Shown: positions 18,890 to 27,874, counted from the stretch's first letter. The stretch is DNA of 64,000 nucleotides from an uncultured Acidobacteriota bacterium (GCA_963779415.1 CAVZYA010000002.1:1664001-1728000); one strand, 5' to 3'. The notes: generated by a model not told the origin, from the letters alone. Program-made: numbers and translations.

Positions 18890-21281
18890 TTAGTGCATTG
18901 CCAGCGGCGCCCCTTTCGGCAGCTTCACAGTGCGACAAATCCGCGCGAGGAGGTCGTCAAATCGTGGCTCTCCCCGGAAAAGGCCGAAGATCGGGTCGGT
19001 CGTGCACGCGAACGACAACATGGGCGTCCGCTCTTCGAACCCACGCTCCAGGGCGTGATAGGCATCCTTCTTCTCCCCCAGGCCCAGGTGGACGAGGGCG
19101 AGCTGGTAGGGCGACACGTAGCGGGCTTTCGAGAGGTCTTGGAGCTCGCGGAGGATCCGGCGGGAGTCGTCGCGCCGCCCCGCCTGCCCGTAGGCAAGGC
19201 CTAGGCAGGCGAGAAAGTTCAGATTCCGGCCCGAGGGCTCAATCGTCGCCTCGAAATCGGCGACGGCGCGCTGAGGCTTCCCTGCGGCCAGGTAGGCCTG
19301 CCCCTGATCCAGCGGACGAGGAAGTTACCTGGGCTCCGGGCAAGAGCCTGTCCGCACTCCTCAATCGCCCGGTCGAACCGGCGCTCGAAATTGAGAATCG
19401 CGCAGCCGTTGATGTCGTTCCATGGCGAGAACGGGTCAAGCTCGCGCGCAGTCTTCAGGTGCTCGCGCGCCTCGCCGAAACGGTCAAGGAAGAAATAGAG
19501 GAGCTGCGCGTACAAACCGTGTGCGGCCGCATATCCCGGCCGCAGCTCCAGGGCCTTCCGGTAATGACGCTCGGCGGCCTCCACGTCCCACTCCCCGTCC
19601 AGTGCGATCACGGCCCGGGCGTTATGAGCCTCCGGTAGGTGGTCGTCGAGCTCGAGGGCCTTTCGGGCCGCGCCGAGCGCTTCGTCCTGCACGGAGCCGG
19701 GCGGGACGAACTCGAAACCAGTTTCCGCCAGCGTCCACGTCGCCTCTGCCAGCCCCGCCCAGCCTGGTGCGTAAAGGGAGTCCAGCTCCGTCGCCCGCTT
19801 GAAGAAGTCGATCGCGGCCCGTAATTCTTTCTCGGTTGCTCCGTGCTCGAGGAGAGGCCGTCCCTTTAGCACGGCCTCGTAGGCTCCTGGGTCCACCTTC
19901 CGCTGGGAGGCAAGCCGCTGGCTTTCCTGCGGCGACACCTGCACCCGGATTTCGCTGGCGATGGCGCGCACCACCTCCCCTTGCAGCGCCAGTACATCCG
20001 TCATCTCGCGTTCGTAGTTGCTGGCCCAGAGGTGCCGGTCCTGCTGCGCGTTTATGAGCTGCGCCGTGATTCTGACTCGCGAGCCGGAGCGCACCACAGA
20101 GCCCTCGACGATCCCTTCGACCCCCAGTTCTCTTGCGATCTCGGAAATTGTCTTTTTCGAGTCCTTGTACTGCATCGCCGACGTCCGGGAGATCACCTTC
20201 AGGGCGCGGATCTGCGCGAGATCCGCGATGAGCGCATCCGTCATCCCGTCTGCGAAGAAGTCCTGAGAGGCGTCGCCGGAGTAGTTCTTGAGGGGAAGGA
20301 CGGCGAGGGACTGGATCGGTGTGGCGCCGGCGGGCTTCGATGCGAAAGGCTTCAGGACGAGCACGATGGCGGCCGCCGCCAGTAGGGCTGCCGCGAGCGC
20401 GGCGATCAAGACCCAGCGCCTCCTCGCGACAGGCTGCGATGGCGGTGTTGCCATAGCCAGCGCACCGGGCCGGGTCCTCAGCTCCTCGGCCAGGTCCGAA
20501 AGCTCGTGCCGAAGATCGCGAGCCGACTGGATGCGCGCGCGCGGGTCCTTTTCGAGACAGTGCTCGACGATCCTGACGTAGGCGGCCGGGAGGTCGGTCC
20601 GGATCCCTTCGAGCGGCGGAGGGTCTTCCTTGAGGATGGAGGCGGCGATCTCGGCTCCGGTCGCCCCCGTGAAGGGCCGCCGGCCGCTCGCCAGCTCGTA
20701 GAGCAATGCGCCGAAGGAGAAGATGTCAGCCCGCGCGTCGGCCTTCTCGCCCCGAAGCTGCTCCGGAGCCATGTAGGGCACCGTGCCGAAGATGTTCCCT
20801 GCCGCCGTCAGCGCCTCCGTCACCGACTCGGTGTGGAGGGACGGCGAAGATGACGGAGCCGAGACCCGGGCGAGGCCGAAGTCGAGAATCTTCGGCGGCC
20901 CTCGTCGTTGACCATCACGTTTCCCGGCTTGAGGTCCCTGTGAACGACGCCGCGGGCGTGGGCGGCGGCGAGGGCGTCGGCGATCGGGATCGCCCAGTCG
21001 AGGATCTTCTTCAAAGAAAGCCCGCCCGGCTCGATCAGCTCCGAGAGCGCCCGGCCCTGTATCCGCTCCATCGCGAGGAAGCGGATGCCGCCGGCTTCCT
21101 CGATGCCATAGAGCGTGACGATGTTCGGGTGATTGAGGGCGGCGACGGCCTTTGCCTCGCGCTCGAAGCGGGCGAGGCGGTCGGGATCAGCGGCCACCTC
21201 GGACCGAAGGATCTTCAAGGCGACAAGGCGGTCGAGACGCGTGTCCCGAGCCTCGTAAACCTCCCCCATCCCTCCGGCACC
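18890..21281 (-). pseudogene. Ser/Thr protein kinase with TM, TolB-like and TPR domains; 5'-truncated, several frameshifts
   Basis: GAGGMGEVY, VALKIL, HRDLKPGN, GTVPYMAPEQ, SLAVLPLKN...FFADGMTD, TPR repeats; no recognisable N-terminus before the Gly loop. Confidence 0.75.
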
Positions 21282-21346: not shown

Positions 21347-21562
21347 ATGGCCGAGAGCGTCTACAAGATCATCGAGCTCGTCGGTACGAGCAAGGAGTCG
21401 TGGGAAAAGGCCGCGGCGGCGGCCGTGGCGGTCGCGTCGAAGAGCCTTCGCGACCTCCGGATCGCCGAGGTCTGCCAGCTCGACATGCAGGTCGAGGGAG
21501 GAAAGGTCACCGCTTACCGGGCGAAGGTCAAGGTCTCCTTCAAGTACACGCCCGGGAAGTGA
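21347..21562 (+). CDS. dodecin family flavin/CoA-binding protein
   Basis: VYKIIELVGTSKESWEKA...YRAKVKVSF, 71 aa; RBS GAGGTG. Confidence 0.9.
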   Translation: MAESVYKIIELVGTSKESWEKAAAAAVAVASKSLRDLRIAEVCQLDMQVEGGKVTAYRAKVKVSFKYTPGK

Positions 21563-23005
21563 GTGCCGCGTCTCGCTGACGGCGCCACGACAGGCGGGAC
21601 GGGAAGCGCCCGGCTCGAGCGGCGGCTCGGGGCGTGGGACGGGGCGCTCCTGACCATCGGATCGGTCGTCGGGACGGGGATCTTCCTCACGACCGGAGAC
21701 ATGGCGAAGGCCCTGCCGCACGCGGGGCTGATCCTCCTCGTCTGGCTCCTCGGAGGGCTCCTCACCCTCGCGGGCGCCCTCACCTACGCCGAGCTGGGAG
21801 TCCTCTTCCCGCGTGCGGGCGGCATCTACCATTTCCTCAAGGAAGCCTTCGGCCCGTTCGTCGGCTTCCTCTACGGCTGGACCTCGTTCGTCGTGATCAT
21901 GTCGGGGGGGGTCGCGGCGATCGCCGTCGGATTCGGGGAGTACTTCGGGGCTTTCGTCCCGGCCTTCGCCCCCGCGCGGCTCCTCGTCGAGATTCCCCTC
22001 GGTCCCCTCACGTGGAAGATCGCCGGGCCGCAGGCCTCGGGCGCGATCGCGATCCTTCTCCTGACGCTTCTCAACCACGCCGGCCTTCGCGAAGGGGCGG
22101 CCGTGCAGAACTTCCTCACCGTGGCGAAAGGGGGCGCGCTCCTCGTCCTCGCCCTTCTCGGGCTCGGGGGGATCGGCGCCGTCTGGCACGCGGCCACCGC
22201 GCCGGTCGACCTCTCCCTGCGAATGCTCATCGCCGGTCTCGGCAGCGCGATGGTCGCCTCGCTCTGGACGTACGACGGGTGGTACGCGCTGACGCTCTCG
22301 GCGGGCGAGGTGCGAAACCCTTCGCGCGACCTTCCCCGAGGCCTCGTCGGCGGGACGGCGGCGGTCGTGGCGCTCTACCTCCTCGTCAACCTGACGTACC
22401 TCCGGGCCCTCCCGATCGACCAGCTCGGCCGGACGACGCGCGTGGCCGAGGCGGCCGCCGAGGCGCTGCTGGGGCCGGCGGGCGCCCGGCTCGTCACCGC
22501 GACGATCGCCGTCTCCATGCTCGGCTGCCTCGCCGCGACGATCCTCTACGCCTCGCGCCTCTACGTGCCGATGGCCGAGGACGGGGTCTTTTTTGCGGCG
22601 GCGGGGCGTGTCGATCCGGTGCGCCATACCCCCACCGGCGCTCTCTGGATGCAGGGGGTCTGGAGCGCCCTTCTCGCGGCGACGGGCGGGTACCGCTCGC
22701 TCTACACGTGGGCCACTTTCGCGGTCGTCCTCTTCAACGTGGCCGGCGGGACGGCCCTCTTCGTCCTCCGACGCACGAGACCCGATGCCGACCGCCCGTA
22801 CCGTGCGTGGGGCTATCCGGTCGTTCCGGCGTCGTTCCTCCTCGCCTGCCTCGCTCTCACCGTCGCCACTCTCTTCCAGAGCCCGGTCGAATCGGGTTTG
22901 GGCCTCGCCGTCGTGGCCTCGGGCGTGCCGGCGTGGCTCTGGTGGCGGAGGCCGAAGGGACGGCGTCCCGCGGCGCTTGACAGGCCGAGAGGCGGCAATC
23001 AATAG
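21563..23005 (+). CDS. APC-family amino acid permease
   Basis: GSVVGTGIF, YAELG, AGGIYHF, YDGW, RPYRAWGYP; about 12 TM segments. Confidence 0.92.
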   Translation: MPRLADGATTGGTGSARLERRLGAWDGALLTIGSVVGTGIFLTTGDMAKALPHAGLILLVWLLGGLLTLAGALTYAELGVLFPRAGGIYHFLKEAFGPFVGFLYGWTSFVVIMSGGVAAIAVGFGEYFGAFVPAFAPARLLVEIPLGPLTWKIAGPQASGAIAILLLTLLNHAGLREGAAVQNFLTVAKGGALLVLALLGLGGIGAVWHAATAPVDLSLRMLIAGLGSAMVASLWTYDGWYALTLSAGEVRNPSRDLPRGLVGGTAAVVALYLLVNLTYLRALPIDQLGRTTRVAEAAAEALLGPAGARLVTATIAVSMLGCLAATILYASRLYVPMAEDGVFFAAAGRVDPVRHTPTGALWMQGVWSALLAATGGYRSLYTWATFAVVLFNVAGGTALFVLRRTRPDADRPYRAWGYPVVPASFLLACLALTVATLFQSPVESGLGLAVVASGVPAWLWWRRPKGRRPAALDRPRGGNQ

Positions 23006-23034
23006 TCGTCGAAAGAGAGAAAGCGGAGATCCTT

Positions 23035-23679
23035 TTGTACGCAGAGATGCAGGAAGCCGTCGTCCAGGGGGATGCGGCCCGGGCGAGGAGGCTGGCCGAA
23101 GCCGTCGTGAACGGCGGGGGGGACCTCGTCGCGGCGATCGAGCAGGGGTTCGCCGCCGGGATCCGGAAGGTGGGTGACCTCTGGGAAGAAGGAGAGTACT
23201 TCCTTCCCGAGCTGGTCCAGGGTGCAGAGGCGATGAAGGCCGCCATGGGGGTCCTCCAGCCCGCGCTTCGGAAAGCCCACGGCGCGAAGGCCTCGAAGGG
23301 GCGGGTCGTCATCGGCACGGTTCAGGGAGACCTCCACGACATCGGGAAGACCCTCGTCGCAACGCTCCTTTCGGCGGGGGGGTTCGAGGTGGACGACCTC
23401 GGCAGCGACGTCCCCGTCGACCGCTTCCTCGCACGGGCAAAGGAAAACGGCGCCGACATCATCGCCGCCTCGGCCCTCCTGACCACCACCATGCCGGTCC
23501 AGAAAGCGATCGCCGAAGGGATCCCGTCCCTTGGGCTCGCCCCGCAGCCCCGGCTTCTCGTCGGTGGCGCGCCGACGACGGCGGCCTGGGCTGCGGAGAT
23601 CGGCGCGGGCTGGGCGGAGAACGCCCTTCGCGCCGTCGCGGTGGCCGAGGCGCTCGTGAACTCCGCCCGGCGCGCGTGA
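23035..23679 (+). CDS. corrinoid (B12-binding) protein, cap plus binding domain
   Basis: GEYFLPEL cap, GTVQGDLHDIGK (DxHxxG), SALLTTT, VGGAP. Confidence 0.93.
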   Translation: MYAEMQEAVVQGDAARARRLAEAVVNGGGDLVAAIEQGFAAGIRKVGDLWEEGEYFLPELVQGAEAMKAAMGVLQPALRKAHGAKASKGRVVIGTVQGDLHDIGKTLVATLLSAGGFEVDDLGSDVPVDRFLARAKENGADIIAASALLTTTMPVQKAIAEGIPSLGLAPQPRLLVGGAPTTAAWAAEIGAGWAENALRAVAVAEALVNSARRA

Positions 23680-24566
23680 ACGCCTTCGCCGAGCGCCTGC
23701 GCCTCCGCGAGACGACCCTCCTGGACGGGGGCCTCGGTAGCCTGCTCATCGCGCGGGGGCTCGCTCCGGGCGCGGCGCCCGAGTCGTGGGTCCTTTCGCG
23801 CCCCGACGACGTCCGCCGCGCGCACGGCGACTACGCTTCCGCCGGGAGCGACGCGGTTCACGCGGCGACTTTCGGGGCGAACCCGATCCGTCTCGCGAGG
23901 TTCTCTCTGGCCGACCGGTGCGAGGCCGTGAACGGAGAGGCCGTCCGGCTGGCCCGTGAGTCCGGCGCGCGTTTCGTCCTGGCGGACGTCGGCCCGACGG
24001 GCGAGTACCTCCCTCCGGTCGGGACGGGCGACCCGCAAGCCTGGAGAGCCGCGTTCCTTCGGCAGGGGCGGGCGCTGGCCGCAGCCGCGCCGGACGCTCT
24101 CCACGTCGAGACGATGACGGACCTGCGCGAGGCCCTGATCGCGCTCGAAGCCCTTCACGAAACCGCGCCGTCGCTCGCCGTGCTGGTCTCGCTGACCTTC
24201 GAGAAGAAGAAGCGGGGCTTCTTCACGATCATGGGGGACCCGCTGGCGAAATCGCTCCGGACGCTCGCCGAAGCCGGGGCCGTCGCCGTCGGCGCGAACT
24301 GCACGCTCGCGAGCGGAGAGATGCGGCCTCTCGCCGAGGAGGCCCGGGCTGCCGTGGATCTGCCTCTCGTCATCCAGCCCAATGCAGGGTCGCCGGAGAT
24401 GCGGAACGGCTCGGTCTTCTACTCGCAGTCGCCCGAGGCCTTCGCCGAGGAGATGGCGTTCGTTGCATCTCTCGGCGTCGAGCTGGTGGGGGGATGCTGC
24501 GGAACCGACCCTCGCTTCATACGTGCCCTCGGGAACCGCCTCGACTCGAAGAGGCCCCGGCCGTGA
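23676..24566 (+). CDS. stand-alone homocysteine S-methyltransferase domain
   Basis: LLDGGLG, GPTG, ETM, GANC, PNAG, GGCCGT (Zn ligands). Confidence 0.92.
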   Translation: MNAFAERLRLRETTLLDGGLGSLLIARGLAPGAAPESWVLSRPDDVRRAHGDYASAGSDAVHAATFGANPIRLARFSLADRCEAVNGEAVRLARESGARFVLADVGPTGEYLPPVGTGDPQAWRAAFLRQGRALAAAAPDALHVETMTDLREALIALEALHETAPSLAVLVSLTFEKKKRGFFTIMGDPLAKSLRTLAEAGAVAVGANCTLASGEMRPLAEEARAAVDLPLVIQPNAGSPEMRNGSVFYSQSPEAFAEEMAFVASLGVELVGGCCGTDPRFIRALGNRLDSKRPRP

Positions 24567-25297
24567 CCGGTCTCCGCGAGCAGGACAAGAAGCCCCCTGC
24601 CGCCGTCTCCAACCCGGGGCCTCCTGTGATCGTCCCTTCGATTCGGCTCTCCATCCTGGAGAGCGACGTCCTCCACTTCCTCGGCTATCCGAAGGGGCGG
24701 CGGCCGGCGGCTCGGCTCGAGCCCGTTCTCGAAGGCGTCCTTCGCGAAGCGAGAAAGCTCGCCGCCGCGCGCGGCGCGTTCCGGACGCTGCCCGTCTCCT
24801 CGGCCGCCGAAATCGGGCTGGAGGAGGAGGAGGCCGACGGGCTCGTTCTCGGCCTCGTCACTGCGGGGGGTGGGATCGAGCGGCGCGTGACGGAGCTTCT
24901 CGGCCGGGGAGAGGATTCCCGCGCCCTCCTGCTGGATGCCGCCGGAAGCGCCGCTGCCGAGGAAGCCGCGAACCGGCTGAGCGTCAGGGTCGTCGGCGGC
25001 AGGAGAGACGGGGACCTCGACGTCGGCTGTCGGGTCAGTCCCGGATACGGCCGCTGGCCCCTCTCTGCCCAGAAAGCCCTTCTCGCGCGTCTCCCTCACG
25101 AGACGCTCGGCGTGTCGCTTAATCCTTCGATGATGATGACTCCACGCAAGTCGATCTCCTTCGCCCTCTGGCTCGGCGCGAAAAGGGCGCCGAGGTCCGG
25201 GCTCTCGGGATGCGACACGTGCGGCCTGCCGCACTGTCGCTACCGCCGCTCCGCCGGGGGCAGGAGATCACGTTCTTCCCGCGAGGTGACGAGTTGA
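24563..25297 (+). CDS. B12-dependent methionine synthase activation-domain-like protein
   Basis: LLDAAGSAAAE, RVSPGYGRWPL, GVSLNPSMMMTPRKSIS, C-terminal CDTCGLPHCRYR. Confidence 0.8.
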   Translation: MTGLREQDKKPPAAVSNPGPPVIVPSIRLSILESDVLHFLGYPKGRRPAARLEPVLEGVLREARKLAAARGAFRTLPVSSAAEIGLEEEEADGLVLGLVTAGGGIERRVTELLGRGEDSRALLLDAAGSAAAEEAANRLSVRVVGGRRDGDLDVGCRVSPGYGRWPLSAQKALLARLPHETLGVSLNPSMMMTPRKSISFALWLGAKRAPRSGLSGCDTCGLPHCRYRRSAGGRRSRSSREVTS

Positions 25298-26757
25298 TGG
25301 CATCGCAAGTGAGGCCCACGGTTTCCCTCCTCTCTTCCGACGACGTCGAGACCATCGTCCAGGAAGCCTGTGACGTCCTCTCCGAAACGGGAGTTCTCGT
25401 CGAGAACCATGACGGACGGCTCCTTCTCCGGGACGGGGGAGCCACGGAAGCCAGCGGTCGCTTCAGGATTCCGGAGGCCATGGCTCGCCGGGCGCTGGCG
25501 ACGGTTCCGCCGCGCATCGAGCTTTTCGACCGGGACGGCGCTCCCGCGATGGACCTGGGCGGAGACCGAGTCCACTTCGATCCCGGCTCGGCGGCCATCC
25601 ACCTCTTCGACGCCTCCACGCGGCGGCGCCGGGCGATCTCGACCCGCGACGTCGTCCGGTTCGCCCGCCTCGTCGACGGCCTGCCGAACTACGCCGCCCA
25701 GTCGACGGCCCTGACGCCGGGCGACGTCCCGGGCGAGGTGGCGGACCGGTACCGCCTCTACCTGATTCTCCGCTCTGCCCGCAAGCCGGTGGTCACCGGC
25801 ACCTTCAGGAAGGACGGCTTCGCCCCGATGCGCGAATTGCTCCTCGCCGCGCGTGGGAGCGACACCGAGCTGAGGCGCCGTCCGCTCGCCATCTTCGACT
25901 GCTGCCCCAGCCCTCCGCTGAAATGGAGCGACCTGACCGGACAGGCGCTCGTCGACTGCGCCCGCTCGGGGATCCCCGCGGAGCTGGTCTCCATGCCGCT
26001 GGCGGGCGCCACCTCGCCGGTCACCCTTCGCGAGGCGGTCGTCCAGCAGTGCGCGGAGAACCTGAGCGGTGTCGTCATCCACCAGCAGGCGGCTGCCGGC
26101 TCGCCGCTGATCTGGGGCGGCTCGCCCGCGGCGATGGACATGCGCCACGGCACGACCCCGATGGGCGCCGTCGAGACGATGATGATCGACCTCGCCGCGT
26201 CGCAGGTGGGGAAGCGGCTCGGCCTCCCGACGCACGCCTACATGGGGCTGTCGGACTCGAAGTGTCCCGACTATCAGGCGGGCTTCGAAAGCGGGATCGG
26301 AACGATCCTCGCGGCGCTGGCCGGCATCAACGTCGTCTCGGGCCCCGGAATGCTCGACTTCGAGATCTGTCAGTCGTTCGAGAAGCTCCTTCTGGATCAC
26401 GACGTCTGCGGCATGGCGCTGCGGCTCGTCCGCGGGATCGACCACCGCGAGGGGGATGCCGCCGCCCTGATCCGGCAGGTCGTCGAGTCGTCCGAGTTCC
26501 TCTCGCACCCCCACACCCGGAAACACTGGAGGGAGGAGCTGACCGTCCCGTCGGGGCTCGTGGCCCGCGACACGTACGGCGACTGGGAGGCCCGTGGCGC
26601 GCCCTGGGCTCACGAGGAGGCCGCGAAGGAGGTCGAGCGCCGGCTCTCGAAGTGCCCGCCCCGCCCCCCGTCGCCCGACGTGACGCACGCTCTCGACGGG
26701 ATCATGCGGCACGAGGTCCGCGCCGCCGGCCTCTCGGAGCTCCCCTCCCTCGAGTGA
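25297..26757 (+). CDS. MttB-superfamily (trimethylamine methyltransferase family) protein, non-pyrrolysine
   Basis: SPPLKW, PLAGATSPVT, MDMRHG, GLSDSKCPDYQAGFE, GPGMLDF; no in-frame TAG; Leu at the apparent Pyl-equivalent position. Confidence 0.9.
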   Translation: MASQVRPTVSLLSSDDVETIVQEACDVLSETGVLVENHDGRLLLRDGGATEASGRFRIPEAMARRALATVPPRIELFDRDGAPAMDLGGDRVHFDPGSAAIHLFDASTRRRRAISTRDVVRFARLVDGLPNYAAQSTALTPGDVPGEVADRYRLYLILRSARKPVVTGTFRKDGFAPMRELLLAARGSDTELRRRPLAIFDCCPSPPLKWSDLTGQALVDCARSGIPAELVSMPLAGATSPVTLREAVVQQCAENLSGVVIHQQAAAGSPLIWGGSPAAMDMRHGTTPMGAVETMMIDLAASQVGKRLGLPTHAYMGLSDSKCPDYQAGFESGIGTILAALAGINVVSGPGMLDFEICQSFEKLLLDHDVCGMALRLVRGIDHREGDAAALIRQVVESSEFLSHPHTRKHWREELTVPSGLVARDTYGDWEARGAPWAHEEAAKEVERRLSKCPPRPPSPDVTHALDGIMRHEVRAAGLSELPSLE

Positions 26758-26787
26758 TCCCGTCAAAGCCGTCGGGGTCAAGCCGTC

Positions 26788-27840
26788 GGGGTCAGGCACC
26801 AATTTTCTATTATACGAAACGGACGATCCGAAGGGTCAGGTCTCATTTTTCTGGTATTCTGTAAGGCATGAGCCGTCCCCTTCGACTCGAGTTCGCCGGA
26901 GCCCTCTGGCACGTCACTTCCCGCGGGAATGAGAAGCGGGAGATCTTCCGCGACGAGGCGGACCGCGAGATGTTCCTCGCGATCCTCGGCCGGACGGTCG
27001 GCCTGTTCCGCTGGACGCTCCACGCGTACGTCCTCTTGGGAAACCACTTTCACCTCCTCGTCGAGACGCCGGAGCCGACGCTCTCGCGCGGGATGAGGCA
27101 GCTGAACGGCCTCTATACGCAGGCCTTCAACCGCCGACACCGGCGTGTCGGGCATCTGCTTCAAGGACGCTTCAAGTCCGTCCTCGTCGACAAGGAGACG
27201 CACTTCCTCGAACTCTCCCGGTACCTCGCTCTGAACCCGGTCCGGGCGGGGGCCGCCCGCTCGGCCCGCGCCTGGCCCTGGAGCAGCTACCGCGCGACCG
27301 CCGGCCTTGCTGCGGCGCCGGCATGGCTGGAGACCGACGCGACCCTCCGGCGTTTCGGGGCGAAGAAGGGCCCGGCCGAGGAGGCGTACCGGAAGTTCGT
27401 CGCCGACGGGAAGAACTCCGGGTACGACCCCTGGGAGCAGGTACAGGGACAGGTCTATCTCGGATCGGACGATTTCGTCGAGGCGGCCGAGAGGCGCGCC
27501 GAGGGACGCGGGGAGGCAGGGAAAGCGCGCCGTCCGCGACTCGTGCGATCGGGCTCGCTTTCCGAGCGGCTCGAGGAGGGGGCGGAGCGCCTCGGGGTTT
27601 CTCTGGAGGAGATGAAGCAGCATCCCCGTTGGCACATCCGCGAGCGGCGTCTCCTCGCGTGGGACGTCCGGCGGCGCGGCCTCTTCCGCCTTCAGGAGAT
27701 CGGCGCGGCGCTCGGCGTCGGGGCCGCCCAGGTCTCGGTGCTCATCCGGGGAGGCGAAGCGCTGGCCGCCTCCGGAGACCGCCTTGCACGGAAGCTCCTT
27801 ACCGGCCGGCCGCTATAATTGAAAATAGGTACCTGACCCC
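26788..27840. mobile_element. RAYT-containing element bounded by 27-bp imperfect inverted repeats
   Basis: Left GGGGTCAGGCACCAATTTTCTATTATA (26788-26814) versus reverse complement of right GGGGTCAGGTACCTATTTTCAATTATA (27814-27840): 24/27 identical. Confidence 0.75.
26868..27818 (+). CDS. REP-associated tyrosine (Y1/HUH) transposase with C-terminal HTH
   Basis: MSRPLRLEF, WHVTSRGN, NHFHLL (HUH), GHLLQGRFKS, YLALNPVRAG, WPWSSY. Confidence 0.92.
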   Translation: MSRPLRLEFAGALWHVTSRGNEKREIFRDEADREMFLAILGRTVGLFRWTLHAYVLLGNHFHLLVETPEPTLSRGMRQLNGLYTQAFNRRHRRVGHLLQGRFKSVLVDKETHFLELSRYLALNPVRAGAARSARAWPWSSYRATAGLAAAPAWLETDATLRRFGAKKGPAEEAYRKFVADGKNSGYDPWEQVQGQVYLGSDDFVEAAERRAEGRGEAGKARRPRLVRSGSLSERLEEGAERLGVSLEEMKQHPRWHIRERRLLAWDVRRRGLFRLQEIGAALGVGAAQVSVLIRGGEALAASGDRLARKLLTGRPL

Positions 27841-27874
27841 CGTCCTTTGACCCCTGTCCTTTGAAGGACCCGTC

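Follow-up and report, generated by a model that had tools for sequence, protein, structure and literature searches.

How could a bacterium make methionine from a methylated compound without passing the methyl group through folate? The question is raised by six co-oriented genes at positions 21347-26757, on the + strand, of a stretch of 64,000 nucleotides (G000:C2:1664001-1728000, hereafter the window) from an uncultured Acidobacteriota bacterium. In order, they encode a dodecin, a LAT-type APC permease, an MttC-like corrinoid protein, a homocysteine S-methyltransferase (HcyMT), a TM0269-like activation protein and a non-pyrrolysine (non-Pyl) MttB (Table 1). The host genome measures 4.36 Mb in 3 contigs, with 92% completeness and ~69% G + C, and its closest public relatives are metagenome-assembled genomes (MAGs) titled Thermoanaerobaculia or Acidobacteriota.

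Judging from the sequence, the last four genes probably form a corrinoid-dependent, folate-independent methionine synthase, a reading to which we give a probability of about 0.6. In the scheme that we infer, including its transfer steps, its acceptor homocysteine, its direction of flow and its role for the permease, MttB would act as the first methyltransferase (MT1) and move a methyl group, most likely an N-methyl, from a methylated compound to the Co(I) form of the MttC-like corrinoid protein. HcyMT (MT2) would then pass it from methyl-Co(III) to zinc-activated homocysteine, giving methionine. Carrier that has slipped to Co(II) would be restored by the TM0269-like activation protein through reductive methylation with S-adenosylmethionine (SAM) and an electron, and the LAT-type permease would import the methyl donor, perhaps in exchange for the demethylated product. 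For the host this would be an auxiliary route to methionine and methyl groups, while some relatives seem to have no other.

Parts of the four-gene core

What the locus shows directly is the identity of the domains, the motifs for catalysis and ligand binding, the order of the genes and the lack of a folate module. Profile matches for each gene place all six on the + strand exactly where the original prediction, made from the sequence alone, had put them, and the six-gene arrangement is confirmed. The junctions it listed can also be read directly (TGAGTG at 21560-21565, GTGA at 23676-23679 and 24563-24566, TGATG at 25295-25299). Overlaps of 4 nt or 1 nt at three of them amount to translational coupling, and 29 nt separate the permease and corrinoid genes. 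Since the activation gene starts at GTG 24563 and mttB at ATG 25297, open reading frames (ORFs) that begin further upstream are over-extended. Moreover, the pterin/methyl-tetrahydrofolate (methyl-THF) module is missing from the cluster as predicted, no PF00809 domain being present there, and an MttB-superfamily enzyme is found.

Table 1. Features of the cluster and of its flanks, with positions counted from the first nucleotide of the window
Feature	Position	Strand	Match or remark
Ser/Thr kinase with C-terminal TPR	19219..21269	-	two overlapping ORFs in different frames
Dodecin-family small flavin-binding protein, 71 aa	21347..21562	+	PF07311 89.1 bits; NF043052 60.3 bits
APC permease, LAT (SLC7-like) type, 480 aa from predicted GTG start	21563..23005	+	PF13520 E 1.4e-54
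Sigma-70-like promoter match TTGACA-18-AATAGT	22977..23006	+	consensus match only
Corrinoid (B12) carrier, MttC/MtgC type, 214 aa	23035..23679	+	PF02607 + PF02310
MetH-type HcyMT, zinc enzyme, stand-alone, 296 aa	23676..24566	+	PF02574 E 1.3e-56
MetH-type activation protein (SAM-binding, reductive remethylation), stand-alone, 244 aa	24563..25297	+	PF02965 26.1 bits (cut-off 25)
MttB-superfamily methyltransferase, non-pyrrolysine, 486 aa	25297..26757	+	PF06253 E 3.4e-75
IS200-like Y1 transposase	26868..27818		PF01797 30 bits
GMC-family oxidoreductase, short, 428 aa	27875..29161		PF00732 + PF05199

Judged by its closest relatives, the core is a chimera in which MT1 and the carrier are of methylamine origin, and MT2 and the repair protein are those of a Thermotoga-like split MetH. 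The corrinoid protein has the build of a MetH B12 domain, with a helical cap, a Rossmann B12 domain and the DxHxxG of His-on binding. This motif reads GDLHDIG, and D99, H101 and G104 are invariant in 25/25 orthologues. Its best match in the PDB is M. barkeri MttC (7XCN_M, E 1.3e-44, 155.8 bits), the MetH B12 domain 1BMT scoring 104.3 bits, and it gives 195.9 bits with NF047995 (MtgC) and 181.2 bits with TIGR02370, both under the cut-offs. Because it is nearer to this methylamine corrinoid protein than to the MetH B12 domain, it is not simply a MetH-like module. Of the three stand-alone MetH-like modules in the original prediction, the zinc-homocysteine and activation modules stand, and the B12 protein has to be reassigned.

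HcyMT has the homocysteine-binding zinc barrel of MetH. Its best PDB match is T. maritima MetH (1Q7M, E 6e-40, 140.7 bits), far ahead of MmuM (5DML, 58.6 bits) and BHMT (48.7 bits), and the zinc cysteines C209, C274 and C275 (GANC, GGCCG) are invariant in 25/25 orthologues. HcyMT is also predicted to dock on the corrinoid protein: their co-fold reaches an ipSAE of 0.65, against 0.03 for the best control, and passes a mark reached by 58/80 solved complexes and 2/110 mismatched pairs. Contact agreement between runs is at least 88% and partner pLDDT at least 89. In the model, the cap loop of the carrier (residues 51-65) touches HcyMT at residues 111-116 and 178-187, and these HcyMT residues include a stretch where T. 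maritima MetH shows a gap. Since MetH structures have been solved, likeness to them may account for the pass.

As for the activation protein, a profile of 27 orthologues matches T. maritima TM0269 (1J6R) with an E-value of 1.2e-14. R157-V-S-P-G-Y162 (R-x-S-P-G-Y-G-x-W) and P194-R-K-S197 are invariant or nearly so among the orthologues, and the protein carries the RxxxGY of the MetH activation domain, which we take to be the name of the SAM-binding motif. A C-terminal tail of the form C-x2-C-x4-C-x-[YF]-[RK] (25220-25297 in the window) is present in 24/24 alignment rows that reach it. The tail is found neither in T. maritima TM0269 nor in the activation proteins of two related loci, one with no HcyMT nearby (L065) and one with RACo present (L102). 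It may be a metal or Fe-S site, and presumably resembles the cluster motif of ThiC.

Finally, MttB belongs to the PF06253/COG5598 superfamily, the PF06253 match (253.4 bits) covering profile positions 28-489 of 500. The original prediction called it non-Pyl, which holds: the frame is uninterrupted and Leu318 stands at the position of Pyl334. Longer fused forms (852-2430 aa) were absent among hits at E <= 1e-20, which is weak evidence against their existence.

Conservation of the cluster and methionine synthesis in its carriers

When species-representative genomes were scanned, tblastn confirmed 321 relatives of MttB, and the best 80 loci were kept. The order corrinoid-HcyMT-activation-MttB is conserved in 35/64 loci with at least 2.4 kb upstream, so that the cluster passes the conservation check proposed for it. 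By record title, these loci belong to Thermoanaerobaculia, Myxococcota-type, Krumholzibacteriota, Latescibacterota, Zixibacteriota and other MAGs. The other 29/64 include mttB alone, corrinoid-mttB, corrinoid-activation-mttB (in MAGs titled Eubacteriales, e.g. L065) and RACo-containing operons. A MetH-type pterin domain lies within the flanks at 1/80 loci. The flow first proposed, from imported substrate through MttB and Co(I) corrinoid to homocysteine and methionine, is also the best-supported reading here.

Reactivation by SAM rather than by a RamA-type ATPase had also been predicted. No RACo is found in the host genome, and sister operons have RACo replacing the activation protein or beside it, which agrees with the prediction. 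RACo (PF14574 + PF17651 + Fer2) adjoins the corrinoid gene at 6/80 loci, four of which have no activation-protein match. One of these four is L099, where the overlapping genes run permease-RACo-HcyMT-corrinoid-MttB. Such a swap would follow from an activation protein that acts on the corrinoid protein.

The host encodes a full-length metH beside a YitJ-like HcyMT-MTHFR gene (C2:250217-255664), as well as a third, MmuM-like HcyMT. Genome-wide, PF00809 occurs only in MetH and FolP (TIGR01496, 242 bits), which bears out the absence of a stand-alone methyl-THF module elsewhere. MetE, RACo (PF14574), a second MttB and CobS were not found in the 92%-complete genome, and PF01717, the MetE-type catalytic domain, has no match in it. 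Since CobS was not found, B12 may be salvaged. The search of the genome that the original prediction recommended turns out both ways: neither a stand-alone pterin gene nor metE is present, but MetH and MTHFR are, and the MttB system is auxiliary in this host. The host metH itself lies in two frames (G000:C2:252091-255664), with activation-domain positions 2-68 in a 1277-aa frame and 52-273 in another. The break falls within the activation domain, after '...LLDEIVEKK', in an A-rich run (locus L009, about 1650-1700), and is either an assembly or sequencing indel or a real frameshift severing the activation domain of MetH.

Among 41 relatives with quality figures, a MetH-type pterin domain was not found in two (G004 and G011), both of which carry the cluster, and is missing in 0/32 cluster-negative relatives (G035 is ambiguous). 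The tally includes the unpublished genomes G025 and G030 and is unaffected by them. G011, of the same family, is 96% complete with 1% contamination and has the cluster in the same four-gene order, and no MetH, MetE or MTHFR was found in it. The pattern among these relatives, though it comes from few genomes that are not independent of one another, fits a cassette able to replace the folate route and argues against methyl-THF as the donor. G004, of the same genus and 86% complete, has mttB and MTHFR each in three frame pieces (G004:C19:5989-6803 and 910292-911751), which could be long-read indel noise or decay.

The census was extended to 38 further cluster-bearing genomes (G041-G078), for which completeness is known by proxy only, from FolP-like hits in 35/38. 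A MetH-type pterin domain in a long open frame is present in 21/38 and absent from 17/38, the call in G046-G078 being made from PF00809 score and open-frame length, not from a full-length model. MetE occurs in three of the 17 MetH-less genomes, leaving 14 with neither enzyme. A small stand-alone pterin protein (48-77 bits) occurs in five of these 14 and in none of the other nine, five of which also have no MTHFR. Over the whole census, a small stand-alone PF00809 protein (48-78 bits) is seen in 6/38 genomes (G062, G063, G065, G070, G071 and G075). It adjoins MTHFR in L113 (G075:C3:242677-244448) and in G062 (C50:92327-94638), an arrangement that recalls mtgD-metF2 of Ruegeria; G062 has MetH, and G075 has neither MetH nor MetE.

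The methyl donor and competing explanations

Which compound would feed the core? With TIGR02369 the MttB gives 332.2 bits, under the cut-off of 525, and its PDB relatives are about equidistant (Pyl-MttB 7XCL, 179.5 bits; MtgB 2QNE, 170.9 bits). It is 27-31% identical to alphaproteobacterial family members from plasmid and chromid records. In a tree whose outgroup comprised only MttB-family proteins of S. meliloti, R. pomeroyi and Halomicrococcus, and from which 7/80 loci were left out because their best piece was <90% of the query or held a stop, it falls inside a clade of 74 sequences on a long branch from the outgroups (SH-aLRT 100).

The pocket was mapped by hand from HMMER alignments onto residues named for the known enzymes (PMC13080624, PMC9842639). 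S98 stands where MtgB has Y97 and Pyl-MttB has G110, and S348 where they have H348 and Y364. H313, which is H or Q in the clade, replaces R312 of MtgB and Y329 of Pyl-MttB, and L318 corresponds to Leu of MtgB and to Pyl334. M233 aligns with M249 of Pyl-MttB (not mapped in MtgB), and E356, adjacent to F355, with F356 of MtgB (not mapped in Pyl-MttB). S98, M233, S348 and F355 are invariant or nearly so across the clade. In 36 CHA rows S98 and S348 are invariant, and in 27 other rows S98 is kept in 27/27 and S348 in 26/27.

By its defining residues, this MttB is neither a trimethylamine nor a glycine betaine methyltransferase. The Pyl-dependent trimethylamine enzyme is ruled out by the lack of an in-frame UAG, by the changes G110 to S98 and Y364 to S348, and by the TIGR02369 score. 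MtgB is ruled out as well, the betaine-binding residues described for it, Y97, R312, H348 and F356 (Picking et al. 2026, PMC13080624), being S98, H313, S348 and E356 here. According to the same paper, every characterised member acts on an acidic quaternary amine and keeps R312.

The permease offers a second clue. It scores 228.5 bits with the L-type amino-acid transporter model TIGR00911, below the cut-off of 701.8, and the solved structures nearest to it are xCT, the bacterial LAT homologue 6F2G, y+LAT1, b0,+AT and LAT1. We take xCT and the LAT-type relatives to be exchangers. A homologue lies upstream of the MttB cluster in 7/52 loci with >4.2 kb upstream. Identity is 81-84% in two close relatives, 29% in a third locus and 42-48% in the remaining four, which are RACo operons of Aminicenantes type. 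That one kind of permease recurs in two operon architectures, of which one has no HcyMT (L085, L092), ties it to the MttB-corrinoid pair and supports an imported donor. That this donor is an N-methyl amino acid is a guess, although the permease is LAT-like.

Several points weigh against the core being a folate-independent synthase fed by import. The MetH and MTHFR of the host make the cluster unnecessary for methionine here; the census depends on proxy completeness and, for most genomes, on abbreviated MetH calls; and small pterin proteins occur in part of the carriers that seem to lack MetH and MetE, and in such lineages the corrinoid hub could receive methyl groups from folate. Moreover, 45/52 loci have no permease, and since no R312-type Arg exists in the clade, no known substrate can be assigned.

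The alternative that survives best is a hub like MtgBCDE of Ruegeria, with a split MetH fed by methyl-THF through a separate pterin module, and MttB as an add-on that brings amine methyl groups to the hub and onward to tetrahydrofolate (THF) for oxidation. The stand-alone PF00809 proteins of the census, beside MTHFR in G062 and G075, are what it would lead one to expect, but we consider it unlikely: the host has only MetH and FolP, G011 has neither a pterin module nor MTHFR, a single locus among the 80 has a pterin module near the cluster, and the gene fixed beside MttB is HcyMT and not a pterin protein.

Still less probable is a system devoted chiefly to demethylation, for nutrition or detoxification, with homocysteine as a convenient sink or another thiol methylated in its place. 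An extra methionine route is unneeded in a host with MetH, and PF02574 enzymes such as MmuM and BHMT do take other donors or acceptors. Yet HcyMT is nearest to genuine MetH homocysteine domains and keeps their zinc site, some carriers are without another methionine synthase, and stoichiometric catabolism via homocysteine would need costly regeneration through the SAM cycle.

The least plausible proposal, which we regard as very improbable, is that the MttB-like barrel functionally replaces the folate domain by binding methyl-THF or another universal methyl carrier, giving a four-piece MetH with a non-homologous donor module; the gene content (MetH minus the pterin domain plus MttB), the many loci with neither a transporter nor linked catabolic genes, three genomes with MTHFR in which MetH, MetE and a small pterin protein were not found (G042, G059, G069) and a pocket unlike those of all characterised members speak for it, but G011 and five census carriers have no MTHFR and hence would make no methyl-THF, ordinary MetH is also present in the host and in more than half of the census genomes, the LAT-type permease is linked in two independent operon designs, and we know of no MttB-family member that binds a pterin.

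The folate-independent synthase can also be stated in a bolder form, which is speculative and which we think improbable as a whole. The cassette would be the sole methionine synthase in part of its range (e.g. G011), among uncultured sediment and soil lineages needing an external methylated compound for every methyl group, much as SAR11 is thought to depend on betaine or dimethylsulfoniopropionate (DMSP). The donor would be of a class new to the MttB family, suited to a large pocket without Arg and rich in Ser, His and Asp; a candidate is an N-methyl amino acid that a LAT-type exchanger imports while exporting its demethylated form. Electrons would enter the activation protein through a metal or Fe-S site built into its Cys tail, which would take the place of flavodoxin docking.

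Between 20800 and 27200 one sigma-70-like site was found, against 0.1 expected from shuffles. It lies in the 29-nt gap before the corrinoid gene and may serve the four-gene core as an internal promoter. A search of this interval for sites like intrinsic terminators gave none, against 2.8 expected. In the close relatives L023 and L024, purD and an unassigned ORF lie upstream in place of the permease. Neither the dodecin, the GMC oxidoreductase nor the IS200-like gene has a counterpart beside the cluster at any of the 80 loci (0/80 for the dodecin), and the dodecin is probably outside the functional unit, though it abuts the permease. Recurrent neighbours in the 80 loci (Sortilin/BNR, SDR, NifS/NifU, NadA and peptidases M49 and M20) were considered as pathway genes and set aside, as they look like lineage synteny. 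The flanks of the G011 cluster yielded no transporter and no hint of a pathway.

Close relatives have no counterpart of the IS200-like transposase next to the cluster. Here it begins 110 nt past the mttB stop, upstream of the GMC oxidoreductase and after a tandem GTCAA(A)GCCGTCGGGGTCA repeat (region 26763-27870), and AT-rich stretches of similar kind appear to lie on both of its sides. On the other side of the cluster, the kinase is split, with Pkinase positions 13-135 in one ORF and 156-260 in the other, a second apparent frameshift near the cluster.

Relation to known systems

The cluster and the hypothesis are already in print. Williams et al. (2022, Environ Microbiol, PMC9324843) describe a four-gene cluster of a non-Pyl MttB homologue, HcyMT, a corrinoid protein and an activation protein in Electryoneota and 'diverse bacteria', and propose corrinoid-dependent methionine synthesis with a methyl donor that they leave unidentified. 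Four such genes, adjacent and without a pterin module, stand at 23035-26757, and the present locus is an additional member of the predicted kind. The likeness extends to the same four products, the lack of a pterin module, a canonical MetH in the same genome, and an MttB homologue whose clade is uncharacterised and distinct from MtgB and MttB, the clades being matched by description only. Unlike that cluster as described, the core here has genes for a dodecin and a LAT-type permease ahead of it. In its passages on the cluster, the paper does not survey the carriers for other methionine synthases. A full-text literature search found no experimental study of the four-gene cluster, and further papers and supplements may hold more.

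The nearest experimental parallel is MtgBCDE, studied in Ruegeria pomeroyi and Phaeobacter inhibens by Mausz et al. (2025, PNAS, PMC12478193). It too is built of modules: the donor enzyme is of the MttB family, the corrinoid protein is shared, and the homocysteine module, MtgE, stands alone. Like the system proposed here, it links amine demethylation to methionine synthesis. As presented there, it needs the pterin protein MtgD, as well as RamA and DUF1638 for reactivation, in place of which the present cluster has a SAM-type activation protein, and its mtgE is usually unclustered with mtgBCD, whereas HcyMT is a fixed neighbour here. A stand-alone PF00809 protein and RACo are absent from the host genome; DUF1638 was not searched for. 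The alphaproteobacterial MttB-family proteins also fall outside the present clade.

The D. hafniense MtgB (2QNE/9YCE) and M. barkeri MttB-MttC (7XCL/7XCN) systems share the MT1 fold family and the corrinoid type. In these anaerobes the methyl group goes to a methyltransferase for THF or CoM, and RamA carries out reactivation, in contrast to the HcyMT and SAM-dependent activation protein found here, and the substrate residues of MtgB and MttB differ from those of the present MttB by our hand mapping (PMC13080624, PMC9842639).

On the MetH side, T. maritima TM0268 (1Q7M) and TM0269 (1J6R) are the best solved relatives of HcyMT and of the activation protein, so that a stand-alone SAM-dependent activation subunit has a precedent. 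We take T. maritima MetH to be a two-gene arrangement, TM0268 plus a separate TM0269. TM0268 has its own pterin and B12 domains, whereas the homocysteine domain here stands alone with an MttC-like carrier, and the Cys tail of the activation protein is an addition with respect to 1J6R. Folate-independent methionine synthases also exist, reportedly, in the MesA-D core enzymes of Price and co-workers (PLoS Genet, 2021), which are said to take the methyl group from a corrinoid protein. They are MetE-like (PF01717), unlike the MetH-like acceptor module here.

To these systems the present analysis adds the chimeric parts, the clade-specific pocket, the link to a LAT-type permease, the Cys tail of the activation protein and a census of carriers without another recognisable methionine synthase. 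The cassette is common in abundant uncultured anaerobes (Thermoanaerobaculia, Krumholzibacteriota, Latescibacterota, Aminicenantes-type and Zixibacteriota), and it bears on the methyl supply and B12 demand of its carriers and on the turnover of methylated nitrogen in sediments and soils. The identity of the donor would add a substrate class to the MttB superfamily. If the proposal is true, folate would be bypassed, the supply of methionine and SAM would be tied to an environmental methylated compound, and the cassette would represent a third B12 route to methionine, beside MetH and the Ruegeria-type hub.

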